From Anaerolineae bacterium (lineage in GTDB: Bacteria; Chloroflexota; Anaerolineae; CG2-30-64-16): a DNA stretch of 64,000 nt. Positions 9,494-58,968 of the stretch are shown here, one piece after another. Numbering within the stretch: position 1 is the first letter of the stretch; each line of letters starts with the position of its first letter. The DNA is taken from assembly GCA_034432655.1 (NCBI GenBank), contig DAOUBP010000157.1, positions 6,874 to 70,873 on the forward strand, read 5' to 3'. The position numbers and the translations under genes are program-made. The notes under the pieces are model-generated. The model did not search any database. It saw only the letters and a program-made list of their open reading frames with translations, and was not told the DNA's origin.

Positions 9494-10100
9494 TCATCCG
9501 CTGGTCCGCGCCGGTTTGCGAACGGTACTGACCGGCGTGGAGGGCATCCAAATCGTGGGTGAGGCCGTAGACGGCCACGTCGCGCGGCGGATGGTCCAGG
9601 AGCTGCGGCCCGATGTACTGCTACTGGACTTGAGTATGCCCGGCCCGCCGGCGGTGGAGACCATTGCGTGGCTGGCCGAGCATTGCCCCCAGGTCAAAGT
9701 GCTGGCCCTGACCGCATACGACGATGACGCCTACGTGCGCGGCGTGGTGGCAGCGGGTGTACCCGGGTACGTACTCAAGGATGAGGCGCCGGAAGCCGTG
9801 GTCCGCGCGATCCGCGCGGTCATGGAGGGAGACACGTGGTTCAGCCGGCGCGTCGTGGACAAGCTCGTCCGGCTCAGCGTTGATAAGGAAGATGTCCACC
9901 TGACTAAGGTATCGCTGAGCGAGCGAGATGCGGCCGTGCTCAAGTTGATCGCGCGGGGTTGGGACAACAGCCGGATCGCTGCCGAACTTTGCGTCGCCGA
10001 GCCAACCGTGCGCAACTATGTCAGCCGCATCTACACAGCCCTGGGCGTCCGTTCGCGCGCTGAGGCGATCGTGTGGGCGCGGGAGAATGGGTACACGTGA
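9459..10100 (+). CDS. Response regulator, NarL/LuxR family (REC + HTH_LuxR)
   Basis: VVLADDHPLVRAGL and DLSMPG receiver motifs. C-terminal LuxR HTH (LSERDAAVLKLIARGWDNSRIAAEL). Confidence 0.9.
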   Translation: MSSLIRVVLADDHPLVRAGLRTVLTGVEGIQIVGEAVDGHVARRMVQELRPDVLLLDLSMPGPPAVETIAWLAEHCPQVKVLALTAYDDDAYVRGVVAAGVPGYVLKDEAPEAVVRAIRAVMEGDTWFSRRVVDKLVRLSVDKEDVHLTKVSLSERDAAVLKLIARGWDNSRIAAELCVAEPTVRNYVSRIYTALGVRSRAEAIVWARENGYT

Positions 10101-10103
10101 GAC

Positions 10104-10210
10104 GTGTTGCGTGCGTACTGCGTATTGCGTACTGCGTACTGCGTATTGCAGAGCTGCGCGCAGTTGTTAGAGTGCGAGATGAAGTACGCAGTACGCAGTG
10201 CACAGTACAC
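10104..10210. repeat. Heptanucleotide tandem repeat (TGCGTAC/TGCGTAT x~6) followed by inverted copies (GTACGCA x3); hairpin-forming
   Basis: Seen directly between convergent genes; probable bidirectional terminator-like structure. Confidence 0.7.
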
Positions 10211-10225
10211 CGGGTGTCAACGTGC

Positions 10226-12028: not shown

Positions 12029-12130
12029 GAATCAGCGAATGAGCGAATGAGCGAATGAGCGAATCAACGAATCAACGAATCAGCGCATCAGCGAATCGGC
12101 GAATCAGCGAATCAGCGAATCGGCGAATGA
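12029..12130. repeat. Heptanucleotide tandem repeat GCGAAT(C/G) about 14 units
   Basis: Seen directly; intergenic. Confidence 0.8.
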
Positions 12131-12618: not shown

Positions 12619-13470
12619 CTACTTTGCGCTCCGGGCGCGCGCGGCCAGTTCGGCCCACTCCGCGTCGCTCAAGGCCTCCAGCCAGTTGAACTGCCCCGCG
12701 CCCTTCAGCCATTCGCCACCGTCAATGACCACACATTCGCCGTTGATGTAGGCCGCGCCGTCGGAGAGCAAGAACGCGGCCAGATTCGCCAGCTCCTCAT
12801 GACGCCCCACACGTTTGAGCGGGATGCGGCTCAGCGCGCTCTCAGCAAGCGCAGCGCTGGGCATCAGGCGCTCCCATGCGCCAGGGGTGGGAAAAGGGCC
12901 GGGCGCGATGGCGTTCATGGTGATGCCGTATTTGGCCCATTCCACTGCCAGGGAGCGCGTCATGGCCAGCACACCGGCTTTCGCCGCAGCCGAGGGCACC
13001 ACATAGCCCGAACCGGTCCAGGCATAGGTGGTGACGATGTTGAGCACCCGCCCGCCGCGGCCGGCGGCGATCCACCGCTTGCCCAGCGCCAGGGTGCAAT
13101 AGAACGAGCCGTGCAACACGATGCCCAGGATGGCATCCACCGCGCGCGGAGAGAGCCGCTCGGTGGGACTGGCGAAGTTGCCCGCCGCGTTGTTCACCAA
13201 CACGTCAATGCCCTCGTAATGCTCCCAAACAGCGGCCATCATGCGTTCCACAGCCTCGGGATCGCGCACGTCGCACGGTATCGGGAACACTTCGCCCCCG
13301 TGCGCGGCCATCATCTCCGCCGCGGCTGTGCGCAACACCTCTTCCCGCCGGCCGCAGATCGCCAGCCTGGCGCCCAGCTGCAGAAACCGTTCCCCCATGG
13401 CGCGGCCCAGCCCCGTCCCGCCGCCGGTGATCAAGATGACCTTGTCTTTGAGCAAGTCAGGTTGAAACAT
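12619..13470 (-). CDS. SDR family NAD(P)-dependent oxidoreductase
   Basis: ITGGGTGLGRAM cofactor motif; NNAAG. Confidence 0.85.
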   Translation of the reverse strand: MFQPDLLKDKVILITGGGTGLGRAMGERFLQLGARLAICGRREEVLRTAAAEMMAAHGGEVFPIPCDVRDPEAVERMMAAVWEHYEGIDVLVNNAAGNFASPTERLSPRAVDAILGIVLHGSFYCTLALGKRWIAAGRGGRVLNIVTTYAWTGSGYVVPSAAAKAGVLAMTRSLAVEWAKYGITMNAIAPGPFPTPGAWERLMPSAALAESALSRIPLKRVGRHEELANLAAFLLSDGAAYINGECVVIDGGEWLKGAGQFNWLEALSDAEWAELAARARSAK

Positions 13471-13500: not shown

Positions 13501-13553
13501 GGATTGTGGAGTGCGTAACGCGTGATGCGTAATACGTGATTCGCCGATTCGCT
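13501..13553. repeat. Heptad repeats TGCGTAA x3 + GATTCGC x2
   Basis: Seen directly; intergenic. Confidence 0.6.
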
Positions 13554-21070: not shown

Positions 21071-21220
21071 CCAAAACGCTCCACCGGCTGATATCGCACC
21101 CCTGCGTATGCCGAAGTGTTCAAAAGATTATTTTAGCGCAAGCAAACACAAAACACAAACGGCTTGCTGATTCATGCCTCTGATGGCATAATCGAGGCGA
21201 CAAAACGCTCCGAGGAGAAA

Positions 21221-37402: not shown

Positions 37403-39994
37403 GTGATTGCGACCCCTGCTTCCCATTGGACCCCAGCCCCCGCCGCACGACGCGGTGCAACCTGGCTCGTCATCGGGCTGATGCTGCTGTTCGCTGCCTG
37501 GTTCTCGGCCTACAGCATCCGTCTACATGACGCACACCTGACCCATAAGGCCGACTTGGGGCAGATTGATCATGCCATCTGGAACACGGCCCACGGCCGG
37601 TTACTGCAAGAGATAAAGGATGATCACCTCAGCACGCGGCTGACCGACCACGTGGAACCGATTTTTTTGTTGGTAGCCCCGATCTTCTGGCTGTGGGATG
37701 ACGTGCGCGCCCTGCTGGTGTTGCAAGCGGTGGCGTTGGCTGCGGGCGCCTGGCCGATTTACCTGTTCGCGCGCCAGAAGCTCATCCGGGTGGCGCCCGG
37801 CGCAATGGCGGAGTGGGGTGCAGCGGTATTTGCGGCAGCCTATCTTCTGTACCCGGCGCTGCAAGCAGCCGCCGTCGCCGAGTTCCACGCGCTGCCACTG
37901 GCTGCGCCGCTGATCGCGGCCGCGGTGTGGGCAGCCGAAGAGCAACGCTGGGGCCGGTTTGTCCTCTGGACTGTAGCAGTGATGGCGGTTCAAGAAGGCG
38001 CGGCGCTGTTGGGTGCCACGCTGGGCGCCTATGTGGCGGTCACCAGCGGTCGCGCCGCCTGGCAGAACCGGGTTTCGCGGAGAAACCCGATTTCGACGGG
38101 GCCACTCGCCAAGGGCGTCGTCAGTGGCCTGGGCGTCTTCCTGGCCGGCCTGGTTTGGTTCGGCCTTGCTACCTTCGTCATCATCCCCCGCTTTGCGGCT
38201 GCGGCTTACGCCCTGGATCAGAGCCCTTACGTGGCCCGTTATGGCGCGCTGGGCGATTCTTTCGGAGATGTGTTGATCGCCCTGGTCACCCGACCTGCGA
38301 CAGTCGTGCAAATCGCAGGGGAGCCGCTGCGCGTGCAATATCTGCTGGGACTGCTGCTGCCCGCGGCCGGGCTGGCATTACTCAGCCCCGGGCTACTGCT
38401 GGCCAGCGCACCCTTGCTGCTGGCGAACCTGCTCAGCGCGTTCCCCTTGCAGTTCTCGGGTGAATCGCACTATTCTGCTGCGTTGGTACCATTCTTTGTG
38501 CTGGCGGCTGCCTCAGGTGCGGCACGGGTGCTGGGACGTCAGAAAGCGCAACAAGGCTGGGCAGCCTTGATGGGCAACCGGCTGCCGGCCTTTATGTTCA
38601 GCGTCGTAGCGATGTGCGCCATCGTGTTTCAAGTGGCCGAAGGGTTCACACCCATCGGCGGCGAATTCCGACGGAGCCCCAGCCGAGGCTGGCCGGAGGT
38701 GACTGCCCATCACCGACTGCTGGAGCGCCTCGCCCGCGACATCCCGGCCGACGCAGCCGTCTCTACCACACCGCCGCTACATCCACATCTCTCGCACCGC
38801 CAGCGCATCTACCTTTTCCCGGTCATCGGGGACGCGGACTATGTGCTGGTAGATGTGGCCGGCACCACCGACATGCACCCGGCCGATGTCAAGGCCAAAC
38901 TGGAGCGACTGATCGCCACCGGCGAGTTTGGCGTGGTGGCTGCCGAGGACGGCTATCTGCTCTTGGCCCGTGATGCAAGCAGGCCAGTTGGCGGCGTTCC
39001 CGATCCCTTCTTCGACTTCGCCCGGGCCAAAAAGCCACCACGCTACCCTCTGGATGTGACATTTGGCGATCATCTCACACTGATCGGGTATGATGTGGAG
39101 GATAACCCCAAATGGCGGCTGACGCGCTTGCGGTTCTACTGGCAGGTTGACAAGCCCTTGCCTGCCGACGCGACTTTAAAGTTTCAAGTGATGACGCCCT
39201 GGGGCGAAATCGCTGATGATAGTGCGTTGCGTCCCCCGCCAGCACTCCTGTGGTACCCGCCAGCGCAATGGCGTCCGGGAGAAACGTTGATGATCGAGAC
39301 CCTGCCGTGGTTCATGCCACGGGCCTGGGCCGCAACGCTGTCCCTCACAACCAGCTCCGGACCGTTGTGGCCGCAGGTCAACGCCGCATCCCCCGTCCCC
39401 GAGCTGGAAATAGCCCCGGATGGCCGGTTGCGCCTGCCGGCATGGACGCGAAAAGAAGGCGCATTGGTGCCGCTGAGCGGCTCGCCCTATCCCTCCGAAC
39501 CGGCCGAGGCGCGCTTTGCCCAGGGGAACTGGACAGTCCGATTGCTGGAATGGGCGGCGCCGATGGCGGCAGCGCCGGGTGGCGTTCTGCCGGTGATGCT
39601 GCATTGGCGCGCTAACGGCCCCGCCGGACAAGACCTGGCAGTGTTCCTGCATTTGCGCGACGCCACAGGGCGCACCGTAGCCCAGGGCGATGCCGGCCCG
39701 GCCTGGTTCGTGCCACGGCCGACCTCACAGTGGCCGACCAAAAACGGCGATCCCGCGGGCCTCTGGAGTGCCCATGCGATTTCACTGCCGGACGACATGC
39801 CGGAAGGCCGTTACGAGCTGGTGGTAGGCTGGTACGATTGGCAGAGCGGTATGCGGCTCCCATCAGTGGACGCAGTGGGGAACCCCAACGGAGATGAATA
39901 CGTCCTTGGCCCCGTAACGCTTGACCAACGGGCCGTACCGCGACCTGATATCGCTTGCCTGTTGCTGCCGGAAAGCTGTGCGGCGCAGGAGTGA
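37403..39994 (+). CDS. DUF2079-family polytopic membrane protein (putative GT-C-like glycosyltransferase) with large C-terminal extracytoplasmic domain
   Basis: HDAHLTHKADLGQIDHAIWNTAHG N-terminal motif. Multi-TM. Confidence 0.65.
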   Translation: MIATPASHWTPAPAARRGATWLVIGLMLLFAAWFSAYSIRLHDAHLTHKADLGQIDHAIWNTAHGRLLQEIKDDHLSTRLTDHVEPIFLLVAPIFWLWDDVRALLVLQAVALAAGAWPIYLFARQKLIRVAPGAMAEWGAAVFAAAYLLYPALQAAAVAEFHALPLAAPLIAAAVWAAEEQRWGRFVLWTVAVMAVQEGAALLGATLGAYVAVTSGRAAWQNRVSRRNPISTGPLAKGVVSGLGVFLAGLVWFGLATFVIIPRFAAAAYALDQSPYVARYGALGDSFGDVLIALVTRPATVVQIAGEPLRVQYLLGLLLPAAGLALLSPGLLLASAPLLLANLLSAFPLQFSGESHYSAALVPFFVLAAASGAARVLGRQKAQQGWAALMGNRLPAFMFSVVAMCAIVFQVAEGFTPIGGEFRRSPSRGWPEVTAHHRLLERLARDIPADAAVSTTPPLHPHLSHRQRIYLFPVIGDADYVLVDVAGTTDMHPADVKAKLERLIATGEFGVVAAEDGYLLLARDASRPVGGVPDPFFDFARAKKPPRYPLDVTFGDHLTLIGYDVEDNPKWRLTRLRFYWQVDKPLPADATLKFQVMTPWGEIADDSALRPPPALLWYPPAQWRPGETLMIETLPWFMPRAWAATLSLTTSSGPLWPQVNAASPVPELEIAPDGRLRLPAWTRKEGALVPLSGSPYPSEPAEARFAQGNWTVRLLEWAAPMAAAPGGVLPVMLHWRANGPAGQDLAVFLHLRDATGRTVAQGDAGPAWFVPRPTSQWPTKNGDPAGLWSAHAISLPDDMPEGRYELVVGWYDWQSGMRLPSVDAVGNPNGDEYVLGPVTLDQRAVPRPDIACLLLPESCAAQE

Positions 39995-40061
39995 CAGGGA
40001 TAGGAGGCACAGAGACACGGAGACGAAGGGTCAAGGGAAACGCGGAGAACAGCAGGCCAGC

Positions 40062-42191
40062 GTGAAACGAAACCGACGCGCCGATCCTGCTCGGCTCTGG
40101 CTGGCAGCCATGTTGCTGCTGGCCCTCGCCCTGCGCGTCTACCGGCTGGACGCGCAAAGTCTGTGGTACGACGAGGCAGTCACCGCGCAGGTGGCCGGCC
40201 GCGGCATCGCCGAGCTCACCCGCTGGACCGCCGATGACATCCAACCGCCGCTGTATTACTACGTGGTGGCCGGTTGGACGCGGCTGGCCGGCCGCTCCGA
40301 ATGGGCGCTGCGTTTCCCTTCTGCCTGCTTCGGCATCCTGACGGTGCCGCTGCTTTGGGCGGCCGGCCGGCGCCTGTTTGGCCGCAGGAACACCGGGCGC
40401 TGGGCGGCCGGCCTCGCGGCGTTGCTGGCTGCGACCTTACCGCTCTACGTCTACTACGCTCAGGAAGCACGCATGTACACGCTGCTGACGTTCCTGGGCG
40501 CCCTGGCCGGGTATGCCCTGCTGCGGACGACGGCCAGGAAGCCGGGGGCAGAGGACAGGGAGCAGGGGACAGGCGCCAGGGAGCAGGCAACCGAGGACAG
40601 GCAGCAGGAGACAGAGGACAAAGGGGCCAGGGAAACCAGTTCAGGCCGGCCAGGCGGATTTGCGCCCTTGGTTGTCAGGGCAACAGGCTCGACCTGGTGG
40701 CTCGTTTTCGTGCTGGCTGCGGCGGCCTTGCTCTACACCCACTACTTCGGCATCTTCTTGCTGGGCGCATATGGCATCTGCTGGTTGGCGTGGTGGACCC
40801 TGACAGCTCACGCGACAAGGCTGCGCTCGCTGACCGCGTTCGCGATCTCCGCCCTGACGATCATCGTGCTCTATCTGCCCTGGCTGCCGGCCATGCTCAA
40901 CCGTTATCGGGCCGACGCATCCTACTGGCGGGGCGCGCTGAAACTGGGCGAAGCGCTGCGCCACGTCGCGATCAACTTCAGCGTGGCCGCACCGGAGATG
41001 ATGCTGGAAAGCGAGGCCGTGCGACTGCTGCCCATCTTCGGCGGGGCCTTTGCCCTGGCCTTGATCTCGCTCTTCTGGCAGGGCAGACATGCGCGCCAGG
41101 CCAGCCTTCTGCTGATCGTCCTGCTGGTGCCGATAATCGCTGTGCTGTTCCTGGCCTCGCGCACCCCTAAGTTCAACCCACGCTACCTGATGCTGGCATC
41201 ACCGGCGTATGTGCTGCTGTTGGCGGGCGGCGTCAGCGCGCTGCGTGGACGACGTGAAAAGCCCCCGACACGACAAGGCATGCAGCACGCCACACGCAGC
41301 ACACCATACGCCATACGCCACACCTCAGCCCTCCTGCTGACCGCCTTCCTGGTTGCAGCGTCTCTGGTCAGCCTTCGTAACTGGTTCACCGACCCGGCCT
41401 TCACCAAGGCCCAGTGGCGCGAGTTGACCGCCTTGGTGCGCGCCGAACGCGCGCCAGATGAAGCTGTGCTGCTGGTCTCCGGCCATGCGTATCCGGCCTG
41501 GGACTACTACGCGGCCGATATCCCGGTTGTGCGGCTGCCCCAGATCGAGATCCTGGACGTCAACGCCGTGTTGGATTTCGGTGTCGGCGCAGAGCTGGCC
41601 ACTGCCCTGGCCGGCAAAAAGGGCGCCTGGCTGGTAAGCTGGCAGGATGAGGTAGTGGATCCCGTGGGGATCGTGCCCTACCTCCTGGAGCGCGCTGGGG
41701 CCGAGCAGGAAGTCCCCCGCAGCTTCTGGCACCTGAAACTACGGCACTGGCGGCTGCAGCCTGATGCCGCCTTCCCGACCGAGCCGCAACCCCAGCACCT
41801 CCAGGGCGCCAACTTCGACCACAAACTGGCGCTGTTGGGCTGGGATGACCCGGTGGGTGGCGAGATCATCATGTACTGGCGCGTGCTCAACATGCTGACC
41901 CAAGACTACCAGATCGCGCTGGTGATCGAGGACGCGGCAGGCAACCGGTTGGGCCAGTGGGATGGCCGGCCGGCCGGTTACCATTACCCGACGTTTCGCT
42001 GGCGGCCCGGCCAGGTTTTGTTCGGCCGTTACCCGCTCCCGCTGCCGGCTGGGGCGGCCGCCGGGGATTACACCATCACTTTGACCGTCTACGACCCCGC
42101 CGACCCCAGCGGCCTGGACATCCGTGACGTGGCCGATAACCCGGCCGGCAAACAGGCACGCCTGGGGCCGGTACGGATGAGGGGGGATTAG
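40062..42191 (+). CDS. GT-C glycosyltransferase, ArnT/PMT (GT39/GT83)-like, with heptad-repeat-encoded low-complexity inserts
   Basis: YDEAVTAQVAGRGIAE...DIQPPLYYYVVAGWTRLAG N-terminal loop motif. Multi-TM. The start (GTG 40062 or ATG 40110) is uncertain. Confidence 0.7.
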   Translation: MKRNRRADPARLWLAAMLLLALALRVYRLDAQSLWYDEAVTAQVAGRGIAELTRWTADDIQPPLYYYVVAGWTRLAGRSEWALRFPSACFGILTVPLLWAAGRRLFGRRNTGRWAAGLAALLAATLPLYVYYAQEARMYTLLTFLGALAGYALLRTTARKPGAEDREQGTGAREQATEDRQQETEDKGARETSSGRPGGFAPLVVRATGSTWWLVFVLAAAALLYTHYFGIFLLGAYGICWLAWWTLTAHATRLRSLTAFAISALTIIVLYLPWLPAMLNRYRADASYWRGALKLGEALRHVAINFSVAAPEMMLESEAVRLLPIFGGAFALALISLFWQGRHARQASLLLIVLLVPIIAVLFLASRTPKFNPRYLMLASPAYVLLLAGGVSALRGRREKPPTRQGMQHATRSTPYAIRHTSALLLTAFLVAASLVSLRNWFTDPAFTKAQWRELTALVRAERAPDEAVLLVSGHAYPAWDYYAADIPVVRLPQIEILDVNAVLDFGVGAELATALAGKKGAWLVSWQDEVVDPVGIVPYLLERAGAEQEVPRSFWHLKLRHWRLQPDAAFPTEPQPQHLQGANFDHKLALLGWDDPVGGEIIMYWRVLNMLTQDYQIALVIEDAAGNRLGQWDGRPAGYHYPTFRWRPGQVLFGRYPLPLPAGAAAGDYTITLTVYDPADPSGLDIRDVADNPAGKQARLGPVRMRGD
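40532..40640 (+). repeat. Heptad-periodic repeat (xxxCAGG units) inside GT-C CDS
   Basis: Encodes RKPGAEDREQGTGAREQATEDRQQETEDKGARE. A second heptad tract (CATACGC units) lies at about 41281-41322. Confidence 0.6.
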
Positions 42192-42287
42192 GGAGTGCGG
42201 ATGGCGAATTACGGACTGCCGCTCATGAGAATAATTTGAGTTGCAATTTTGACGTTGGGTAATCTATCGTTTAGACTCTCACCACCA

Positions 42288-42333
42288 TTCGTTGATTCGC
42301 CGATTCGCTGATTCGCCGATTCGCTATTCGCTC
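42288..42333. repeat. Heptad tandem repeat GATTCGC x6 (reverse complement of the GCGAATC family)
   Basis: Seen directly, upstream of the 42349 gene. Confidence 0.75.
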
Positions 42334-43653: not shown

Positions 43654-43763
43654 GACAGGGGGTAGGGGTCAGAGGTCAGTCCTCGTGCTGCCCGGGGCGT
43701 GAAATCTCAGGCAACTCCTGCCGGGTTGCCCTGCTGGGCAGCGGGTTAATGACGAGATGGGAG

Positions 43764-44822
43764 ATGGACGCGCAACACGGAGTACGCAATACGCAATACG
43801 GAGTACGCAATACGCAATACGGAGTACGCAATACGCTCGCCATCATCGTCGTCAGCTACAACGTGCGTGATTTGTTGCGCGCCTGCCTGCAAGCCACGTA
43901 CGCCAGCCTGGCGCTCAGCCCGGAGATCGCGGCAACCGTGTGGGTGGTAGACAACGCCTCGGCCGATGGCAGCGCCGAGATGGTAGCGGCCGAATTCCCC
44001 CAAGCGCGCTTGATCGCCAGCCCCCAGAATCTGGGCTTCGCCGGCGGCAACAACTTGGTGTTGCATGCACTGGGCTTTGGAGATTCAACACAACAGGATG
44101 ATCGGAAACACTCCCCAAGCCCCAATCCCCAATACGTCCTTCTGCTCAACCCCGACGCCGAACCCATCGGCGACGCCATCGGACAGATGGTCCGTTTCTT
44201 GCGCGAACACCCGGGAGTTGGTGGCGCCGGCGCGCAGCTCCAGTACCCCGATGGCAGATTTCAGCACGCCGCGTTCGCCTTTCCGGGGCTGCTGCAACTG
44301 TGGTTCGACCTCTTCCCCCCGCGGCCGCGGCGGCTGTTAGATTCCCGCCTCAACGGCCGCTACCCCAGACGGCGCTACCAGGCCGGGCAACCCTTCCCGG
44401 TTGATTTCGTCTTGGGCGCGGCGTTGCTGGTGCGGCGAGAGGCGATCGCGGCGGTGGGCCTGCTGGATGAGGGCTACTTTATGTACGCCGAAGAGGTGGA
44501 CTGGTGCTGGCGGATGCGCCGCGCGGGCTGGCCGCTATGGTGCGTGCCCTCGGCCCGCGTGATCCATCATGGCGGCGCCAGCGCGCAGCAATTCCGCTCG
44601 CAATCGTTCGTCAACCTCTGGCGCAGCCGCCAGCGCTTGTATTCTCGTTTCTATGGGCCGCTGCGGCAAAGGCTGGCAAGCTGGATCGTGCGCCTGGGCA
44701 TGGCAGCCGAGATCAGGCGGGCAAAAGCCGGCTACAGACGCGGGGAGATCAGCATGGAAGAACGGGAGGCCCGAATCCAGGCAGCGCAAACCGTGAAAAA
44801 GCTATTCGCGAGGAACAGATGA
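43764..44822 (+). CDS. Glycosyltransferase family 2
   Basis: IIVVSYNVRDLL...VDNASADGS...GFAGGNN GT2 motifs. The 5' end carries a repeat-encoded (GVRNTQY)x3. Confidence 0.75.
   Translation: MDAQHGVRNTQYGVRNTQYGVRNTLAIIVVSYNVRDLLRACLQATYASLALSPEIAATVWVVDNASADGSAEMVAAEFPQARLIASPQNLGFAGGNNLVLHALGFGDSTQQDDRKHSPSPNPQYVLLLNPDAEPIGDAIGQMVRFLREHPGVGGAGAQLQYPDGRFQHAAFAFPGLLQLWFDLFPPRPRRLLDSRLNGRYPRRRYQAGQPFPVDFVLGAALLVRREAIAAVGLLDEGYFMYAEEVDWCWRMRRAGWPLWCVPSARVIHHGGASAQQFRSQSFVNLWRSRQRLYSRFYGPLRQRLASWIVRLGMAAEIRRAKAGYRRGEISMEEREARIQAAQTVKKLFARNR
43779..43836 (+). repeat. 21-nt unit (GGAGTAC-GCAATAC-GCAATAC) x about 3 within the 5' coding region of the GT2
   Basis: Seen directly. Confidence 0.75.
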
Positions 44823-48842: not shown

Positions 48843-49265
48843 ATGATCACTATCAACCGTGAGACCGACTATGCAGCTCGCGTGCTCCTGCATCTGGCAC
48901 TCCAGGAACCAGGCAGCCGCGTCACTGCGCAACAAATAGCCGCGCAGCGCGTGATCCCTCGTGCTCTGGTGCGCCGGGTGGTCAGCCGCCTCAGCGCCGC
49001 CGGTCTCGTGATCACGACGCGCGGCAGCGAAGGCGGGATCAGCCTGGCCCGGCCAGCTGCGCAGATCAGCCTGTTGGATGTCGTGGAAGCCCTCGAGGGG
49101 CCACTGGCTCTCAACATCTGCACCATCGAGCCCGAAGTGTGCCCCTTGATCCCGGTTTGCACCGTACACGACGCCTGGGTCCACGCCCGGCAGCTATTGC
49201 GCGACACCCTGGCCCAGATCACATTCGACAGGCTGGCGAACAAGAAGGAGGTGGGTAGCGGGTAG
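48843..49265 (+). CDS. Rrf2 family transcriptional regulator (IscR/NsrR-like, 3 Cys)
   Basis: N-terminal wHTH (YAARVLLHLA). C-x6-C-x5-C cluster ligands. Confidence 0.85.
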   Translation: MITINRETDYAARVLLHLALQEPGSRVTAQQIAAQRVIPRALVRRVVSRLSAAGLVITTRGSEGGISLARPAAQISLLDVVEALEGPLALNICTIEPEVCPLIPVCTVHDAWVHARQLLRDTLAQITFDRLANKKEVGSG

Positions 49266-49267
49266 GA

Positions 49268-49365
49268 GCGAAACAGCGAAGCAACGAATCATGAATCAGC
49301 GAATCAGCGAATCACGAATTCACTGTTCGTCCGTTCGCCGTTTGCTGATTCGCCCATTCACCGTC
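49268..49365. repeat. Heptad tandem repeat CGAATCA x~5 followed by its inverted copy (TGATTCG); large hairpin
   Basis: Seen directly between the Rrf2 gene and cydA. Confidence 0.75.
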
Positions 49366-49398: not shown

Positions 49399-50766
49399 AT
49401 GGATTCCCTTATTCTGGCGCGCTGGCAGTTTGCCATCACGACTGTCTACCACTTCTTCTTCGTGCCTCTGACGTTGGGGCTGTCGGTCCTGGTTGCCCTC
49501 ATGCAGACCATCTATGTGCGCACCGGAGACGAAACCTGGAAGCGCATGACTAAATTCTGGGGCAAGCTATTCGTCATCAACTTCGCCATGGGGGTCGTCA
49601 CCGGCATCGTCCAGGAGTTCCAGTTCGGCATGAACTGGTCGGAATACTCCCGCTTTGTAGGCGATATCTTCGGCGCACCGCTGGCCATAGAGGCATTATT
49701 GGCCTTCTTCATGGAGTCTACCTTCCTGGGGGTCTGGATCTTCGGCTGGGACAGGCTGTCCAAGAAGGTGCATCTGGCGTCCATCTGGTTGGTGGCGATC
49801 GGTTCCAACCTGTCGGCGCTGTGGATTCTGATTGCCAATTCGTTCATGCAAGAGCCGGTCGGTTTCGTAATCCGTGGCGGCCGGGCCGAAATGGTGGACT
49901 TCGGCGCCTTGCTGACCAATCCCCACGTCTGGTTGCAATGGCCGCATGTCTTCTTCTCCGGTTTGGCCACCGCTGCCTTCTTCATGCTGGGCATCGTGGC
50001 GTGGCGGATGCTACGAAAGGATAGCGACCGGAGCTTTCTACGCCGCTCGTTCCAGATGGCGGCAGTGGTTGCGCTGTTAGGCTCTGTCATGGTGGGGCTG
50101 ATCGGCCATTCCCAGGCCCAGCACATGATCCGGACGCAACCGATGAAGATGGCCGCGGCCGAGGCGCTGTGGAACACGGAACAACCGGCTGCCATGTCTC
50201 TTTTCACCGTCGGCGATATGGTCAACCGCCGCGACATCTTCGCCATCCGCTTGCCGGCTGTGTTGAGCATCCTGGCCTGCAACCGCACCGATTGCGCAGT
50301 GCAAGGCATCAACGAGCTGCAAGCGCAATATGAATCGCAATACGGGCCGGGCAATTACGTGCCGTTCGTGGTATTAATCTACTGGGCCTTTCGGGCAATG
50401 GTGGGGGCCGGTGTGGCGATGGTCGCGCTGGGCGCATGGGCTTTGTATCGCGTGTTGCGTGATCGCATCAGCGCGCCGGGCTGGCTGCTGCGACTCCTGC
50501 CGTTAGCGATCGCCCTACCGTATATTGCGAATACCGCAGGTTGGATCCTCACCGAAATGGGCCGCCAGCCATGGATCGTGTTTGGCGTGTTGAAAACCGA
50601 AGATGCCGTATCGCCCAACGTGGCCGGCGGGATGGTGCTGGCATCGCTGATCGGCTTCACGCTGCTTTACGGCGTGTTGATGGCTGCCGATGTCTACCTG
50701 CTGGCGAAATACGCCAAAGCCAATACCGAGGACGTGGCAAAGGACGTGGTCCCGAGCTGGGCGTGA
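49399..50766 (+). CDS. cydA: Cytochrome bd ubiquinol oxidase subunit I
   Basis: MDSLILARWQFAITTVYHFFFVPLTLG and Q-loop. Confidence 0.95.
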   Translation: MDSLILARWQFAITTVYHFFFVPLTLGLSVLVALMQTIYVRTGDETWKRMTKFWGKLFVINFAMGVVTGIVQEFQFGMNWSEYSRFVGDIFGAPLAIEALLAFFMESTFLGVWIFGWDRLSKKVHLASIWLVAIGSNLSALWILIANSFMQEPVGFVIRGGRAEMVDFGALLTNPHVWLQWPHVFFSGLATAAFFMLGIVAWRMLRKDSDRSFLRRSFQMAAVVALLGSVMVGLIGHSQAQHMIRTQPMKMAAAEALWNTEQPAAMSLFTVGDMVNRRDIFAIRLPAVLSILACNRTDCAVQGINELQAQYESQYGPGNYVPFVVLIYWAFRAMVGAGVAMVALGAWALYRVLRDRISAPGWLLRLLPLAIALPYIANTAGWILTEMGRQPWIVFGVLKTEDAVSPNVAGGMVLASLIGFTLLYGVLMAADVYLLAKYAKANTEDVAKDVVPSWA

Positions 50767-50807: not shown

Positions 50808-51821
50808 ATGGAGCTCAGTACCCTCTGGTTTATCCTGATCGGTGTGCTTTTCACCGGTTTCTTCATCCTGGAAGGGTTTGACTACGGCGTGGGTATCCTG
50901 TTGCCGTTCTTGGGCAAGAAGGACGAAGAACGCCGGGTGATCATCAACACCATTGGTCCATTTTGGGACGCCAACGAGGTGTGGCTGCTGACGGCCGGTG
51001 GTGCGATGTTCGCCGCGTTTCCCAACTGGTACGCCACGCTGTTCAGCGGTTTCTATCTGGCGCTGTTCCTCATGCTGGCGGCATTGATCGTGCGCGGGGT
51101 GGCGTTCGAGTTCCGCAGTAAAGACAAAAATCCCCGCTGGCGCGCCCTATGGGATTGGTGCATCTTCGTCGGCAGTTTCGTGCCCGCGCTGTTGTGGGGC
51201 GTGGCAATGTCCAACATTGTGCGCGGGGTGCCCATTGACGCGAACATGCACTACGTGGGCGGCTTCTTCAACCTCTTGAATCCTTACGCGCTGTTGGGCG
51301 GCGTGGCCGGATTGGGTGTGTTCACCCTGCACGGGGCGATCTTCCTGAGCTTGCGCACCGAGGGCGAGCTACATGCACGCGCAGAAACGGTGGCGAACCG
51401 TCTGTGGCCGATCGTGCTGGCCGTCGGCGCGGCAACCGTGGTTGCCAGCTACTTCGCCACCGACATCTTCCAGCGGTTAGGGATCAACCCGGGCATCAGC
51501 GCGCTGGGCGCGGGCGCAGCATTCCTGGCCGGCGGCTGGTTCTTGCGGCAGAAGCAAACGGGGTGGGCCTTCGCCATGACCGCCCTGACCATTGCACTGA
51601 CGATCGTGACTACCTTCCGCGGGCTCTACCCGCGTGTAATGGTGTCCAGCCTGAACCCGGATTGGAGCCTGACGGTCGCCAACGCCTCGTCGTCGCCTTA
51701 CACCTTGCGCGTCATGACCATCGTCGCGCTGATCTTTGTGCCCATCGTGCTGATTTATCAGGCCTGGAATTACTGGGTGTTCCGGGCCCGGCTCAGCGGT
51801 AAGAGCGCCCTGAAGTACTGA
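50808..51821 (+). CDS. cydB: Cytochrome bd ubiquinol oxidase subunit II
   Basis: MELSTLWFILIGVLFTGFFILEGFDYGVG. ACGGAGG RBS. Confidence 0.9.
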   Translation: MELSTLWFILIGVLFTGFFILEGFDYGVGILLPFLGKKDEERRVIINTIGPFWDANEVWLLTAGGAMFAAFPNWYATLFSGFYLALFLMLAALIVRGVAFEFRSKDKNPRWRALWDWCIFVGSFVPALLWGVAMSNIVRGVPIDANMHYVGGFFNLLNPYALLGGVAGLGVFTLHGAIFLSLRTEGELHARAETVANRLWPIVLAVGAATVVASYFATDIFQRLGINPGISALGAGAAFLAGGWFLRQKQTGWAFAMTALTIALTIVTTFRGLYPRVMVSSLNPDWSLTVANASSSPYTLRVMTIVALIFVPIVLIYQAWNYWVFRARLSGKSALKY

Positions 51822-51876: not shown

Positions 51877-51933
51877 TCCTCAGATGCGGACGGCGAATGC
51901 GCACAACCCTGTAAGACCGCTCGCATCTGAGGA
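51877..51933 (+). other. 12-bp perfect inverted repeat (TCCTCAGATGCG...CGCATCTGAGGA) with 33-nt loop between cydB and cydDC
   Basis: Seen directly. Confidence 0.3.
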
Positions 51934-51992
51934 TGCTTGCTCCTCAGCCTTACTCCCCAACGCCATTCCTGGCAGTCACCCACGGGCTCGGC

Positions 51993-54900
51993 ATGTCTAA
52001 ATTCTTCGACCGCCGCCTTCTGAAAGAGGCCCAAGAGCGCCGCCTCGGCCTGGGACTGACCGTTGCGCTCAGCGCGCTGGCCGGCATCCTGACGGTGGGC
52101 CAGGCAACCGCTCTGAGTCATGCCGTAGCTGCCGTTTTCCTGGCCAACAGCGATCTGGGAGGCGTGCAACCCTGGCTGCTGGCACTGGCCGGCCTGACGG
52201 CGGCGCGCAGCCTGGCGGCCTGGGGAGGCGAGGTGGCGGCCAATCGCCTGGCGTTACAAGTGAAAAGCACGCTGCGCGCGCGGCTGATGGGCCACATCCT
52301 GACGTTGGGCCCGGCCTACATCCGAGGCGAGCGCACCGGTGAGCTGGTCAACACGGTCACCGAAGGGGTCGAGGCGCTGGATGCATACTTCAGCCAATAC
52401 CTGCCGCAAGTGGCACTGGCCGCTATTGTCCCGTTGGCTTTCCTCGCCGTCGTGTTCCCACGCGATCCGCTTTCCGGCCTGGTGTTGCTCCTGACAGCAC
52501 CGCTGATCCCCCTCTTCATGGTGCTGATCGGCAACGTGGCAGACGCGCTCACCCGCCGCCAATGGGGCGCACTCGGCCGCATGAGCGCGCACTTCCTGGA
52601 CGTGCTACAGGGTTTGACCACTCTCAAACTTTTCGGCCGCAGCCGGGAGCAGATCGCCATCATCCGACAGATCACCGATCAGCATCGCGATGCTACGCTG
52701 AAGGTGCTGCGGGTGGCTTTCCTGTCTGCTCTGGTGCTGGAGATGGTGGGCACGATCAGCACCGCCATCGTCGCGGTCGCGATCGGCCTGCGGTTGCTTT
52801 ACGGCAAGATGCTCTTTCAAGACGCGTTTTTCGTGTTGATCCTGGCTCCGGAATTCTACCTGCCGTTGCGCCTGCTGGGCACGCGTTTTCACGCCGGCAT
52901 AGCGGGGGTGGCAGCGGCTGGACGTATCTTCCAGGTGTTAGAGACAGGGGAGTGCAGAGACGCGGCGACGCAGGGACGCGAGGACATTGGGGCGCAGAGA
53001 CGCGGCGACGCGGACACAGAAACGCGGGGACGCGAAGACGCAGGGACATTGAGATGCGGGGGCGCGGAGACGCAAGGACGCTCTGCGTCTCCCTCTCTCC
53101 ACGTCTCCCTCTCCCCCCCTCTCCCCCTTCGCGTCGTGTTCGAGAACGTCTCCTACACCTATCCGACCCGCGCTACCCCTGCGCTGGACAGCATCAGCTT
53201 TGAGATCGGTCCCGGCGAAGTAGTGGCACTGGTCGGCCCCACCGGCGCAGGCAAGAGCACCGTGGCACAACTGCTCCTGGGCTTTATTCGTCCCACAACG
53301 GGCAAAATCACGGCGAAGATCGAAACAAAACCCGATGCCCATCAAACCGTCCGGCCTGACGCCACACCTCAGCCCCCAGCCTCCAGCTCCCGGCTCCCGA
53401 CTCCCGGTTCCCAGCCGCCGGCCGCCAGCCCCCGGCCACCAGCTGCCAGTCTCCAGCTTCCAGCCACCAGCTTCCGTCCTGCCTGGATGCCGCAATCTCC
53501 TTATCTGTTCTACGCCTCAGTGGCCGATAACATCCGGCTCGGCCGGCCCGCTGCCTCATGGGAGGAACTGCTTCGTGCAGCCGAGGCCGCCAACGCAGAC
53601 GACTTCATCCGGGCGTTGCCTCAAGGCTACGACACCGTCATCGGCGAACGCGGGGAACGACTCAGCGGCGGCCAGGCACAGCGGATCGCCCTGGCGCGCG
53701 CCTTGCTGATGGATGCACCGCTGGTAGTGTTGGACGAGCCCACGGCCAATCTGGACCTGGAAAGCGAAGCAGCAGTGCAGGCCGGCATCGGACGTTTGCT
53801 GCAAGGCCGCAGCGCCCTGATCATCGCCCACCGGCTGAACACGGTGCGCGCCGCGGATCGCATCATCGTGCTCGATGCCGGAAGGATCGTCGAACAAGGC
53901 ACACACGACGAGCTGATGGCGCGCCAGGGCAGCTACGCACAATTGGTGACCAGTGCGCAAGCCGAGAGCGCACCGGACGCGGCGGTCAGCCCTGTGTCAC
54001 CGGCGGCCGACCTGCAAACGCTTCGGCGCCAGGACTTACACACGGCACAACGTGGAGCACAGGACACGCAACACGCGGCACACAATACCCAGGACGCAAT
54101 ACACAACACGCAGTACGGAATACACAATCCCCAATCCACAATCATCGCCCTTCTCTCGTTTCTCGCCCCTTTCTGGCGCTGGGTGGCACTGGCAGTACTG
54201 CTGGGATTTCTGGCCATCGGCAGCAGCATCGGGTTATTGGGCACCTCAGCCTGGATCATCGCCATGGCCGCACTGCAGCCTTCCATCGCAGTCCTGCAGG
54301 TCGCAATCGTGGGGGTGCGCTTCTTCGGCATCGCGCGCGGCGTTTTCCGCTACCTGGAACGCCTGGTCTCCCATCAAGTCACATTCCGGCTGCTCGCCCA
54401 ATTGCGGGTCTGGTTCTACAGCATGATCGAGCCGCTGGCACCGGCGCAGCTCTCCGGCCGGCGGAGCGGCGACCTGCTGAACAGGATCGTATCCGACATC
54501 GCGGCGCTAGAGCAGTTCTACGTCCGGGCCGTCGCACCGCCCCTGGTCGCCCTGCTCACATCTGCCCTGGCGGTCTTGATCGTCGGCCTACACCACCCGG
54601 TGTTGATCGGGCCGTTGTTGATCTTTCTGGCCTTGACCGGCCTTGCAACACCGTTCGTTGTCCAACTGCTGGCCCGACCGGTGGGGGTAGAAGTAGCAGA
54701 AAGCCGCGCTGCGCTGAGTGCTGCGCTGGTGGATGGCGTGCAAGGCGCGGCCGATTTGCTGGCCTTTGGGGCTGAGGAAACGCACCTGGGACACATACAA
54801 GACCTCGACCGCCGGCTCGCTGATGGCCAGGCGCGCACGGCGGCCATCACTGCGCTGAGCACTGCACTGGGTATCCTGTTCACGTGGCTGGCAGCAACCT

Positions 54901-55949
54901 TGATCCTGGCGACAGCCATTCCCTTGGTAACTGGGGGCCAATTGTCCGGTGTCAACCTGGCTGTATTGGCGCTGGTAACCCTGGCAGCCTTCGAAGGGGT
55001 GCTCCCGCTGTCGCAAGCTGCACACGCGCTGCAGACCAGCCTGGCAGCGGCACACCGCCTGTTCGAGCTGATCGCGCAGCCGGCTTATGGCGTGCCGCTG
55101 TCGTCCCCTGCCCCTGTCACCGGCCTGCCGGCCGAAATACGGCCTCTTCCGGCACCGCCAGCGGCCCAACAGCCCCCCACTTTGACCGCCGCCCCACCGC
55201 TCCGGGTGGAGAACCTGACCATGCGCTACGCGGCGGACGAGCTGCCGGCCCTGTGGGATGTGAGCTTTGCCGTGCCGGCTGGCGGCCGGGTTGCCATCGT
55301 GGGGGCCAGCGGCGCGGGGAAATCGTCCCTGGCCGCCGTCCTGCTCCGTCTCTGGGATTACCAGCAGGGCCAGGTGTGGCTGGGTGACTACGAGCTGCGT
55401 GAACTGCCTCCCGAATGGGTACGCCAACAGATTGCAGTCGTAACGCAGCAGGCCCATCTATTCAACGGGACGATACGGGACAACCTCCTGTTGGCCCGAC
55501 CGGAAGCGACCCCAATCGAACTGGAACAGGCGGCGCGCGCAGCACAAATCCACGACTTCATTCGAGCGTTGCCGGCCGGCTATGACACCTGGATCGGCGA
55601 GCATGGCCTGCAGCTCAGCGGAGGGGAGCGTCAACGGCTGGCGATCGCGCGGGCCTTTCTAAAAAACGCTCCCATTTTGATCCTGGATGAGCCAACCGCC
55701 AACCTGGATGCGCACACTGCCCGTGCTTTGCTACAGGCACTTACACCGCTGACTGCGGGCAAGACCACACTCATCATCACCCATCGTCTGGAGCAACTGC
55801 GCGATGACGACCAGGTCCTCCTTCTCAACCGCGGGCGGCTGATAGCAACCGGCTATCACGCAGACCTGCTGGCGCGTGACCCTCTATATCAGCGCCTCTG
55901 GCGGCGCGAACGCGAAACACTGGACGACCAGGCGGGCAGACAATGGTAA
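51993..55949 (+). CDS. cydDC: Fused CydD-CydC thiol-reductant ABC exporter (two TMD-NBD halves in one ORF) with repeat-encoded inserts
   Basis: Two ABC halves, each with Walker A (GPTGAGKST; GASGAGKSS), signature (LSGGQAQR; LSGGERQR) and Walker B. Continuous 1338-aa ORF in the track. Confidence 0.8.
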   Translation: MSKFFDRRLLKEAQERRLGLGLTVALSALAGILTVGQATALSHAVAAVFLANSDLGGVQPWLLALAGLTAARSLAAWGGEVAANRLALQVKSTLRARLMGHILTLGPAYIRGERTGELVNTVTEGVEALDAYFSQYLPQVALAAIVPLAFLAVVFPRDPLSGLVLLLTAPLIPLFMVLIGNVADALTRRQWGALGRMSAHFLDVLQGLTTLKLFGRSREQIAIIRQITDQHRDATLKVLRVAFLSALVLEMVGTISTAIVAVAIGLRLLYGKMLFQDAFFVLILAPEFYLPLRLLGTRFHAGIAGVAAAGRIFQVLETGECRDAATQGREDIGAQRRGDADTETRGREDAGTLRCGGAETQGRSASPSLHVSLSPPLPLRVVFENVSYTYPTRATPALDSISFEIGPGEVVALVGPTGAGKSTVAQLLLGFIRPTTGKITAKIETKPDAHQTVRPDATPQPPASSSRLPTPGSQPPAASPRPPAASLQLPATSFRPAWMPQSPYLFYASVADNIRLGRPAASWEELLRAAEAANADDFIRALPQGYDTVIGERGERLSGGQAQRIALARALLMDAPLVVLDEPTANLDLESEAAVQAGIGRLLQGRSALIIAHRLNTVRAADRIIVLDAGRIVEQGTHDELMARQGSYAQLVTSAQAESAPDAAVSPVSPAADLQTLRRQDLHTAQRGAQDTQHAAHNTQDAIHNTQYGIHNPQSTIIALLSFLAPFWRWVALAVLLGFLAIGSSIGLLGTSAWIIAMAALQPSIAVLQVAIVGVRFFGIARGVFRYLERLVSHQVTFRLLAQLRVWFYSMIEPLAPAQLSGRRSGDLLNRIVSDIAALEQFYVRAVAPPLVALLTSALAVLIVGLHHPVLIGPLLIFLALTGLATPFVVQLLARPVGVEVAESRAALSAALVDGVQGAADLLAFGAEETHLGHIQDLDRRLADGQARTAAITALSTALGILFTWLAATLILATAIPLVTGGQLSGVNLAVLALVTLAAFEGVLPLSQAAHALQTSLAAAHRLFELIAQPAYGVPLSSPAPVTGLPAEIRPLPAPPAAQQPPTLTAAPPLRVENLTMRYAADELPALWDVSFAVPAGGRVAIVGASGAGKSSLAAVLLRLWDYQQGQVWLGDYELRELPPEWVRQQIAVVTQQAHLFNGTIRDNLLLARPEATPIELEQAARAAQIHDFIRALPAGYDTWIGEHGLQLSGGERQRLAIARAFLKNAPILILDEPTANLDAHTARALLQALTPLTAGKTTLIITHRLEQLRDDDQVLLLNRGRLIATGYHADLLARDPLYQRLWRRERETLDDQAGRQW
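52944..53125 (+). repeat. Heptad-periodic GC-rich repeat tract with internal inverted segment inside cydD half (between TMD and NBD)
   Basis: Encodes ETGECRDAATQGREDIGAQRRGDADTETRGREDAGTLRCGGAETQGRSASPSLHVSLSPPLPL. Confidence 0.6.
53377..53478 (+). repeat. Heptad repeat CCAGCTx x~14 inside the CydD NBD (between Walker A and Q-loop)
   Basis: Encodes a Pro/Ala/Ser-rich insert ...PQPPASSSRLPTPGSQPPAASPRPPAASLQLPATSF... Confidence 0.7.
54040..54147 (+). repeat. Heptad repeats (CACGCAA/ATACACA/CCCAATC) forming the CydD-CydC linker
   Basis: Encodes HTAQRGAQDTQHAAHNTQDAIHNTQYGIHNPQSTII. Confidence 0.7.
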
Positions 55950-58088: not shown

Positions 58089-58176
58089 GCCGAAGTGGCG
58101 GAATGGCAGACGCGCTAGGTTCAGGACCTAGTGAGGATTAGACCTCGTGTGGGTTCAACTCCCACCTTCGGCACCA
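58089..58176 (+). tRNA. tRNA-Leu (anticodon CAG), long variable arm, encoded CCA
   Basis: Acceptor GCCGAAG/CTTCGGC. Anticodon loop TTCAGGA. T-arm GGTTCAACTCC. Confidence 0.85.
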
Positions 58177-58673: not shown

Positions 58674-58747
<74 letters not shown>

Positions 58748-58894: not shown

Positions 58895-58968
58895 GGCGAC
58901 GTAGCTCAGTGGCAGAGCAAGCGGCTCATAATCGCTGGGTCGACAGTTCAAGTCTGTCCGTCGCCACC
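58895..58968 (+). tRNA. tRNA with CAT anticodon (elongator Met or lysidine Ile2)
   Basis: Acceptor GGCGACG/CGTCGCC. Loop CTCATAA. T-arm GACAGTTCAAGTCTGTC. Confidence 0.8.

Follow-up and report, generated by a model that had tools for sequence, protein, structure and literature searches.

A fused CydDC gene of an Anaerolineae bacterium and the 7/8-nt tandem arrays translated within it

Among the described systems closest to the gene reported here is the CydDC heterodimer of Escherichia coli (PDB 7ZD5 series; PMC10374445), a type IV exporter linked to cytochrome bd and composed of two polypeptides from adjacent genes. In that exporter, heme is bound by residues H85, R77, R81, and R136 of CydC and H312 of CydD (Wu et al. 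2023, PMC10374445), and the nucleotide-binding domain (NBD) of CydD is thought to be the degenerate one (PMC10374445). Streptomyces has a single cydCD gene, sven_3715, in which CydD is followed by CydC in one open reading frame (ORF) downstream of cydAB (PMC5207766). The gene analyzed in this work, cydDC, was located at positions 51993–55949 of a 64,000-nt stretch of DNA from an Anaerolineae bacterium (assembly GCA_034432655.1, contig DAOUBP010000157.1, positions 6,874–70,873 of the forward strand), and this stretch in its full length is referred to as the window. The gene encoded both halves in one chain and contained tandem arrays of 7- or 8-nt units. It is explained, with a probability of roughly 0.75, as a functional, inherited single-chain CydDC that carries translated 7/8-nt arrays at tolerated sites.

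The window protein shared with E. coli CydDC the orthologous halves, the heme residues, the type IV exporter fold, and the linkage to cytochrome bd. Unlike the E. coli exporter, it was a single chain with a tether of ~58 residues between the halves and was ~43, 39, and 25 residues longer at three sites. Its first NBD (NBD1) was fully canonical, whereas the signature of E. coli CydD is LSVGQ and its NBD is presumed to be degenerate. The single ORF with CydD preceding CydC, downstream of cydAB, was the same as in Streptomyces cydCD and in homologs named CydCD by JGI, although repeat-encoded inserts are not described in the fused actinobacterial proteins. The best structural matches were full-length ABCB exporters of the ATP-binding cassette (ABC) superfamily such as P-glycoprotein (ABCB1), in which a first transmembrane domain (TMD1), NBD1, a flexible linker, TMD2, and NBD2 also follow one another in one chain. 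The ABCB1 linker is likewise disordered and of similar length, and linker-deletion mutants of mouse P-glycoprotein were among the matches. However, the identity was ~19–20%, the substrate is different, and the fusion is independent.

The arrays also have described counterparts. Rickettsia palindromic elements are inserted in frame into housekeeping genes (PMC10969869). Like these elements, and like intragenic miniature inverted-repeat transposable elements and repetitive extragenic palindrome-like elements, the window repeats were short and dispersed, lay in frame in unrelated genes, and were translated at permissive sites; hairpin folding was significant for part of them, and not for insert 1 of cydDC. 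Unlike the Rickettsia elements, which are ~150-bp units with a conserved peptide, they were built of tandem 7/8-nt arms in variable copy number. The contingency loci of Haemophilus and Neisseria (PMC12721329) similarly have non-triplet units within or upstream of genes, whereas the window arrays were degenerate and no length change was found between near-identical genomes. A literature search returned no description of heptanucleotide, tandem, or palindromic repeats of this kind in Chloroflexota or Anaerolineae. In cyanobacteria, a few families of 7-nt tandem arrays, the short tandemly repeated repetitive sequences said to have been described by Mazel et al. in 1990, are reportedly dispersed through the genome. 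As in those reported families, the unit families of the window were few, specific, dispersed, and far above chance (15 arrays against 2.3). The phylum and the units were different, and the cyanobacterial arrays are said to be mainly intergenic, whereas those of the window were frequently translated and often formed inverted pairs.

Domain structure and conserved residues of the single chain

An uninterrupted reading frame on the + strand spanned 51933..55949 and gave 1338 amino acids when counted from its first ATG. The ATG at 51993 (MSKFF...) gave a product of 1318 amino acids, and this start appears likelier than 51933 because homologs begin with MSKFF or MSRFF. The first-pass annotation had placed the start at 51993 and the length at 1338 amino acids; the start was retained, and the length belongs to the ATG at 51933. 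The 1318-residue sequence was identical to a database protein (P0001) that was also called on an independent Logan assembly contig.

The first half matched the NCBIfam profile TIGR02857 (CydD) with 873.8 bits (cut-off 435), the second half matched TIGR02868 (CydC) with 699 bits (cut-off 329), and two ABC_membrane and two ABC_tran domains of Pfam were found in the ORF. In pairwise alignments with the E. coli reference proteins (locus L078), residues 24–587 of CydD (588 residues) aligned with residues 20–658 at 32% identity, and residues 3–566 of CydC aligned with residues 719–1299 at 34% identity. The linker was placed at about residues 660–717 from the ends of these alignments. Further stretches that were longer than in E. 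coli were residues 318–377 (between TMD1 and NBD1), 432–496 (from the Walker A helix to the Q-loop strand), and 1030–1069 (between TMD2 and NBD2). The alignment with ABCB1 had the same gap in NBD1, where ~22 canonical residues corresponded to ~60. The reading frame, the profiles, and the E. coli alignment all agreed with the earlier view that CydD and CydC form one ORF in the order TMD1–NBD1–linker–TMD2–NBD2. The parts of the gene were as follows.

51993..55949, + strand: cydDC, single-chain ABC exporter of 1318 amino acids (the alternative upstream ATG at 51933 gives 1338 amino acids)
51993..52943, + strand: TMD1, the CydD membrane domain (residues 1–317), including H300 (PF00664; helices with a predicted local distance difference test (pLDDT) score of 83–98; E. 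coli alignment)
52944..53123, + strand: insert 1 (residues 318–377) at the TMD1–NBD1 junction (Tandem Repeats Finder (TRF), inverted repeats, low pLDDT)
53124..53969, + strand: NBD1 (residues 378–659) with Walker A GPTGAGKST, Q501, LSGGQ, D581-E582, D-loop D588, and H613 (PF00005; alignments with ABCB1 and E. coli CydD)
53313..53480, + strand: insert 2 (residues 441–496), Pro/Ala/Ser-rich, between the Walker A helix and the Q-loop strand (TRF array 53370–53475)
53970..54143, + strand: linker between the CydD and CydC halves (residues 660–717; E. coli mapping, pLDDT)
54064..54143, + strand: heptamer array of the linker, units CGCAATA / CGCAGTA / CACAATC / CCCAATC, periods 7/14/21 (TRF, sequence)
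54144..55079, + strand: TMD2, the CydC membrane domain (residues 718–1029), with R786, R790, H794, and R845 (alignment, invariance)
55080..55199, + strand: variable Pro/Ala-rich TMD2–NBD2 junction (residues 1030–1069; pLDDT, length variation)
55200..55949, + strand: NBD2, the CydC ATPase (residues 1070–1318), and the stop codon, with Walker A GASGAGKSS, LSGGE, D1232-E1233, and H1264 (PF00005 at 1089–1236, alignment)

A separate start for the CydC half, which the first-pass annotation had suggested looking for, was sought at residues 650–730. The in-frame candidates were only TTG 651, GTG 652, GTG 668, and GTG 730, and none of them had a GGAGG-type site 5–10 nt upstream, whereas split relatives have GGAGG..ATGA where the two genes meet. 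The CydC half had no methionine of its own and opened at the equivalent of E. coli CydC residue 3.

The heme-binding residues of E. coli, which comprise heme ligands and contacts of the propionates, corresponded to R786 (R77 of CydC), R790 (R81 of CydC), H794 (H85 of CydC), R845 (R136 of CydC), and H300 (H312 of CydD), and all of these residues were invariant in the 115 aligned homologs. The ATPase motifs of both NBDs were canonical and at least 90% conserved in the same homologs, and nearly all were invariant.

The AlphaFold2 model covered residues 1–1200 of 1318, so that NBD2 was incomplete, and had a mean pLDDT of 85.1 and a predicted template modelling score of 0.85. The elbow helix, 6 + 6 transmembrane (TM) helices, and two NBDs of the type IV exporter fold were present, and the single-chain model superposed on full-length ABCB1-type exporters with a TM-score of 0.76 (E 3e-44, Foldseek). 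The pLDDT fell below 50 only at residues 332–374, 451–489, 661–690, and 1036–1055, which were exactly the four variable segments. The idea that the inserts might be disordered surface loops was borne out by these segments of low pLDDT inside a confident model. The heptad part of the linker (residues 694–709) was modelled as a weakly supported helix (pLDDT 58–68) that ran into the elbow helix.

The ORF is probably a functional single-polypeptide CydDC, a heme-exporting type IV ABC exporter, as judged from the conservation of its residues. The exported heme would serve to mature the cytochrome bd oxidase, the subunit genes of which, cydA and cydB, directly precede cydDC.

Variable segments and the dispersed 7/8-nt arrays

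Four arrays with 60–83% matches were detected by TRF in cydDC. Insert 1 was composed of a purine-rich octamer array (GGAGACGC-like, peptide GREDxGxxRRGD...; period 8/16, 52954–53081) followed by an inverted C/T-rich array (GCGTCTCC-like, peptide SPSLHVSLSPPLPL; period 8/16, 53086–53128), and the latter was approximately the reverse complement of the former. Insert 2 contained a period-7 array, CAGCCTC x15. The first half of the linker was non-repetitive and was followed by the heptads HNTQDAI, HNTQYGI, and HNPQSTI up to the first residues of the CydC half; the underlying arrays, which were degenerate (64–83% matches), stopped exactly at the last linker codon. The Pro/Ala-rich segment at residues 1030–1069, a fourth variable segment that was absent from the first-pass annotation, had no TRF array.

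Between conserved anchors, insert 1 measured 69 residues against a median of 32 in the 115 homologs, insert 2 measured 59 against a median of 21 (interquartile range 21–21), and the TMD2–NBD2 junction measured 55 against a median of 45 (range 33–228). The lengths of the four segments in these homologs ranged over 23–75, 8–71, 31–113, and 33–228 residues, and control regions were nearly constant (69 residues, interquartile range 69–69). The arrays, the low pLDDT, and the homolog lengths together confirmed that the CydD half carries low-complexity inserts, one of them inside its NBD. Both the ~60-residue TMD–NBD insert and the Pro/Ala/Ser-rich insert between Walker A and the Q-loop were real; the possible degeneration of the NBD1 site that had been connected with the latter was not supported, as described below.

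In the orthologous loci L082 and L083, insert 1, insert 2, and the linker likewise contained arrays, with other units and copy numbers. The proteins P0004 and P0121 (99.8% identical) had only two differences, both in insert 1 at residues 369–370 (ISPFDHL and ISPSPHL, respectively), consistent with faster substitution in repeat-encoded segments.

The arrays were not confined to cydDC. TRF found 15 distinct tandem arrays in the window, all with a period of 7/8 or multiples, whereas 30 sequences simulated with a second-order Markov model averaged 2.3 and never exceeded 5. The heptamers of the linker array (CGCAATA/CGCAGTA/CCCAATC) belonged to a family that was present at 7 places in 4 loci, against 0.23 expected, and 6 of the 7 were inside ORFs, including in-frame copies. 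Besides the linker array, these places were 10116, 21987, 22022, 43785, 43806, and 44121. The GAATCAGC octamer family was present at 5 places, all intergenic, and a TGA arises in every frame of its complement, GCTGATTC. The units located inside ORFs, such as CGCAATA/TATTGCG, GGAGACGC/GCGTCTCC, and CAGCCTC/GAGGCTG, were stop-free on both strands. Translated array copies were found in four ORFs of the window, and the peptides RNTQYxV, NPQSxIP, and GDxxTRGR also occurred in the following genes.

21164..24085, + strand: 973-aa protein with multiple TM helices and a C-terminal ILEI domain, arrays at 21930–22060 (Pfam, sequence)
39921..42191, + strand: PMT_2 glycosyltransferase-like membrane protein, repeats at 40535–40620 and 41282–41323 (Pfam, sequence)
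43749..44822, + strand: GT2 glycosyltransferase, arrays at 43771–43836 and 44121–44134 (Pfam, sequence)

In the ORF at 21164, an in-frame (TGCGTAC)n array was followed by its complement, (CGCAGTA/CGCAATC)n, and the encoded peptide 'CVLRTAYSVLRT...RNPQSAIPNPQSII' was located directly before a hydrophobic helix. The PMT_2-like ORF had a 21-nt repeat (acidic peptide 'GAEDREQGTGAREQATEDRQQETEDKG') and a 14-nt repeat ('HATRSTPYAIRHTS') ahead of a TM helix, and its N-terminus, 'RHRDTETKGQGKRGE', resembled the octamer-encoded peptide. The GT2 ORF had an N-terminal extension of three VRNTQYG heptads encoded by CGCAATA x9.4 and an internal vestige, SPSPNPQ. Its orthologs had ~2 N-terminal heptads in L082 and ~5 in L083. 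The L083 ortholog was 81 residues longer (438 versus 357), and most of this length was an internal insert in which a GDxETRGR array preceded an NPQSxIP array; both peptide families also occur in cydDC, in insert 1 and the linker, respectively.

Among the intergenic arrays, a near-perfect octamer array at 12029–12128 (GAATCAGC x12.5, 90% matches) ended 14 nt before the start (GGAGG-ATG) of a gene for a DAO-family oxidoreductase (10861–12015, minus strand). Other arrays of the same family were at 13536–13550, in the spacer upstream of the gene at 12619–13470, at 42287–42331, on the predicted start of the ORF at 42292, and at 49267–49319, before cydA. In the spacer between convergent genes at 10100–10212, (TGCGTAC/TGCGTAT)n faced (GTACGCA)n across a loop of ~40 nt, and the resulting hairpin of heptamer arrays may act as a bidirectional terminator. 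A search of the window against Rfam matched three tRNAs only and no family on any array.

The low-complexity segments of cydDC are probably translated copies of 7/8-nt tandem arrays, often in inverted hairpin pairs, that occur in intergenic as well as coding DNA of the lineage. All three frames of a 7/8-nt unit give the same cyclic peptide; since 7 and 8 are not multiples of 3, any stop-free unit is readable in whatever register. The arrays would persist only where the protein tolerates them, at the three domain junctions and one peripheral segment of NBD1, as disordered loops, and the segment between the two halves would additionally serve as the tether between NBD1 and the elbow helix of TMD2. 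Transport function, the neutrality of the inserts, and a selection filter on stop-free units are parts of this explanation that we infer. A wider proposal can be put forward only tentatively: the arrays might be undescribed, dispersed, hairpin-forming cassettes of this Anaerolineae lineage that provide frame-indifferent disordered linkers, colonise permissive loops of essential proteins, have replaced a segment of an ABC ATPase, and have repeatedly mediated the fusion and fission of cydD and cydC as stop-containing units were gained or lost.

Distribution of the fused gene and origin of the linker

All 120 of the best database homologs were fused, with 1100–1400 residues and 46–76% identity, and came from Anaerolineae, Thermoflexales, and other Chloroflexota metagenome-assembled genomes (MAGs). 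JGI lists many of them as 'ATP-binding cassette subfamily C protein CydCD'. In itself, the fusion is unremarkable, a recognised fused form of the CydDC family that is common in the bacterial class. The first-pass annotation had contrasted the gene with cydD and cydC as normally adjacent, separate genes, and had held that an ancient, conserved fusion in relatives would speak against its origin by repeat insertion. The contrast does not apply to this lineage, and a conserved fusion is largely what these 120 homologs displayed. Database naming overlooks the CydC half, as fused proteins of 1300 residues are labelled 'CydD' only: P0003, P0063, P0077, P0080, and others (1200–1300 residues, fused) bear the NCBI name 'thiol reductant ABC exporter subunit CydD'. 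The fused form corresponds to KEGG K16014, and S. coelicolor SCO3947 is also fused.

The set of loci compared consisted of 80 loci from species-representative genomes, in which the closest relative had 63% identity, and L001. Both halves were in one ORF in 27 of these loci. The tree set of 72 sequences contained 31 fused and 41 split forms, and the split loci included other Anaerolineae (Bellilinea, Caldilineae, and Aggregatilineaceae). In three loci of long-read MAGs (L031, L045, and L053), the cydD and cydC frames overlapped by 100–500 nt and the linkers were of fused length; these are probably fused genes frameshifted by sequencing error or by real disruption in repeat tracts, and they were scored as fused in the parsimony analysis and counted among the 31. 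In three other Chloroflexota loci (L030, L048, and L062), cydD was parted from cydC by 0.9–1.3 kb of unrelated DNA, which apparently holds an inserted gene.

In a neighbour-joining tree of the concatenated halves with 100 bootstraps, the fused forms were monophyletic in 0 of 100 replicates, and at least 4 switches between the fused and the split state were required (bootstrap median 6.5). The window gene clustered with L002, L035, and L040, all of which are fused, with 99% support. As judged from these relatives, the fused architecture is inherited and was not created in the window.

The distance from the end of NBD1 to the start of TMD2 was 23–47 nt in split forms, typically with GGAGG followed by an ATGA stop/start overlap, and 114–306 nt between the halves of fused forms. 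The shortest fused linkers measured were 38–40 residues, and a single-chain exporter evidently needs a tether of ~40 residues or more. Given the gap of 23–47 nt in split forms, extra DNA had to be added for the tether. It is conceivable, but doubtful, that this DNA was a stop-free heptamer array that spread over or replaced the junction of the cydD stop and cydC start, with the present linker as its remnant. The need for such a tether at a translationally coupled junction and the repeated switching between states would suit this origin, as would the high 7-nt periodicity of the linkers in several separate fused lineages (L001 0.47, L003 0.54, L004 0.43, L005 0.66, L011 0.50, and L019 0.52; background ~0.21–0.28). 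In the split relative L043, moreover, the cydD/cydC junction itself (7737–7795) was a heptamer array, CACTGCT/TACTGAT, in which TGA-containing units supply the cydD stop and the last unit abuts the cydC ATG. This junction may have arisen on the way to, or as the outcome of, a fusion or fission mediated by repeats; it is explained equally well as a product of fission.

However, two members of the 99%-supported fused clade of the window, L035 and L040, had linkers without 7-nt periodicity, as did ~60% of the fused loci, so that the present array cannot be identified as the cause of the fusion. The linker array of the window is itself degenerate, and no special origin is needed for an array in a disordered linker since arrays are also found at three other sites of cydDC and in unrelated genes. 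Repeat-mediated fusion or fission is plausible in the CydDC family and cannot be shown for the window. The earlier claim that heptad repeats encode the linker was correct for its latter part, whereas the suggestion that the fusion arose by their insertion was not confirmed.

In close relatives (P0002–P0006; L083 11900–12070), the first half of the linker contained one or two copies of a ~17-residue module, SPHxAADRLKPRxQ, and the module DNA of L083 had a small 7-bp stem (AGCCGGT...ACCGGCT). The window linker kept only a degenerate trace of this module, 'PAADLQTLRRQD'. The AADRLKPRxQ module was considered as a dispersed element and rejected, as a search of the window found no other copy.

Hairpins, the first ATPase site, and the significance of the arrays

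The genes upstream of cydDC and the array between them were as follows.

48843..49265, + strand: Rrf2-family transcriptional regulator gene, upstream of the cyd genes (Pfam PF02082 Rrf2, E 1.2e-34)
49262..49362, + strand: octamer array (GAATCAGC)n followed by its near-complement (GCTGATTC/GTTCGCC) in the Rrf2–cydA spacer (TRF, sequence, RNA folding)
49399..50766, + strand: cydA, cytochrome bd oxidase subunit I (Pfam PF01654, E 5e-174)
50811..51821, + strand: cydB, cytochrome bd oxidase subunit II (Pfam PF02322, E 1e-115)

The gene order Rrf2–cydA–cydB–cydDC–secG was syntenic in L082 and L083, and the orthologous Rrf2–cydA spacer of L083 had a 320-nt version of the octamer array. Downstream of secG and SBP_bac_5 genes, the three tRNA genes detected with Rfam were located at 58089–58173, 58674–58745, and 58895–58966.

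When RNA folding was compared with dinucleotide shuffles, hairpins were significant for 6 of the 7 arrays tested. In the window, the z-scores were -3.4 for 10100–10212, -3.6 for the Rrf2–cydA spacer (-3.59; 0 of 200 shuffles as stable), and -4.8 for the array in the ORF at 21164. The orthologs of insert 1 folded despite differing units (L004, z -6.4; L083, z -5.6; L002, z -4.0). Insert 1 of the window had no significant hairpin (whole insert, z -0.58; core, z -1.42), where the hairpin has apparently decayed, and its description as an inverted-array hairpin is taken from the orthologs.

An action of the arrays at the level of DNA or RNA, as mRNA hairpins at which translation or transcription pauses from one domain to the next, as 5'-leader or terminator elements, or as phase-variation tracts, is unlikely, although several features would fit it. 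The hairpins of L004, L083, L002, 10100–10212, the region upstream of cydA, and the ORF at 21164 were significant, and arms remained complementary though the units differed between lineages. The octamer arrays lay 14–80 nt upstream of start codons, with one shared orientation among those nearest to genes, and a slip of one non-triplet unit would cause a frameshift. However, insert 1 of the window did not fold significantly, the cydDC arrays were degenerate, and none of the arrays belonged to an Rfam family. The independently assembled near-identical pairs P0004/P0121 and P0003/P0122 (99.8% protein identity) had no copy-number change, and the arrays are thus not rapidly switching tracts. A phase-variable contingency locus was disfavoured by the degenerate arrays and the lack of indels between these 99.8% relatives, which are not strains of the window organism itself.

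Still less likely is the proposal that the repeat insert made the CydD ATP site degenerate and non-hydrolytic, with a regulatory or structural role only. In the ~35 closest relatives, the canonical 21-residue NBD1 segment between Walker A and the Q-loop ('xITVDGxPLxxLxxxxWRxxxA') was exchanged for heptad-like (QLPASSF) or arbitrary sequence of 8–71 residues, with 8 residues in P0007 and P0008, which suggests relaxed constraint on part of NBD1. As the E. coli CydD NBD is presumed to be degenerate, some relaxation at the periphery of NBD1 would be unsurprising. The catalytic residues nevertheless argue against a lost site. Residues G415, G418, G420, and T423 of Walker A, Q501, S558, G560, and Q563 of LSGGQ, D581, E582, D588, and H613 were invariant in the 115 homologs, and K421 was conserved in at least 90% of them. 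E582, H613, and LSGGQ of NBD1 and E1233, H1264, and LSGGE of NBD2 were all canonical and conserved, and the NBD1 signature was more canonical than the LSVGQ of E. coli. NBD1 outside the insert was modelled at pLDDT 79–97. Judging by ABC structures in general, the missing stretch would lie at the periphery of the nucleotide site, which also counts against degeneration. The suggestion of the first-pass annotation that the insert may have degenerated the NBD1 site is not borne out by these motifs.

An artefact or pseudogene, in which repeat misassembly hides a stop or frameshift and the genes are separate or dead, can be dismissed: repeat tracts are error-prone in assemblies and the long-read relatives L031, L045, and L053 have overlapping frames, but a second assembly yielded the identical 1318-residue product, the frame stays open across linkers of varied length in more than 100 homologs, purifying selection is strong at conserved residues in both halves, and the CydC half lacks its own methionine.

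Several points weigh against an inherited, functional CydDC with arrays at tolerated sites. Function is judged from conservation, and the gene tree is of the neighbour-joining kind only. The heptad part of the linker is weakly predicted to be helical. The heptads end before a hydrophobic segment, which is TMD2 in cydDC, and in three other ORFs they are followed by a segment that is either hydrophobic or a first strand; this placement could mean selection. Finally, the arms at the TMD1–NBD1 junction of L004, L002, and L083 are complementary with quite different units, as if a hairpin and not a peptide had been conserved, which would argue for a role at the nucleic-acid level.

For the biology of cytochrome bd, the gene appears to be an ordinary CydDC that is probably functional. 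The sub-clade around the window is a natural experiment, in which 8–71 residues of low complexity have taken the place of the 21 residues that connect the Walker A helix with the Q-loop strand while every catalytic motif was kept, and this would mark the segment as dispensable in CydD. The repeat phenomenon is moderately interesting and reaches well beyond the coordinates of cydDC. Frame-indifferent arrays are a simple route to linkers, N-terminal extensions, and possibly gene fusions, and they may be the more useful lead.

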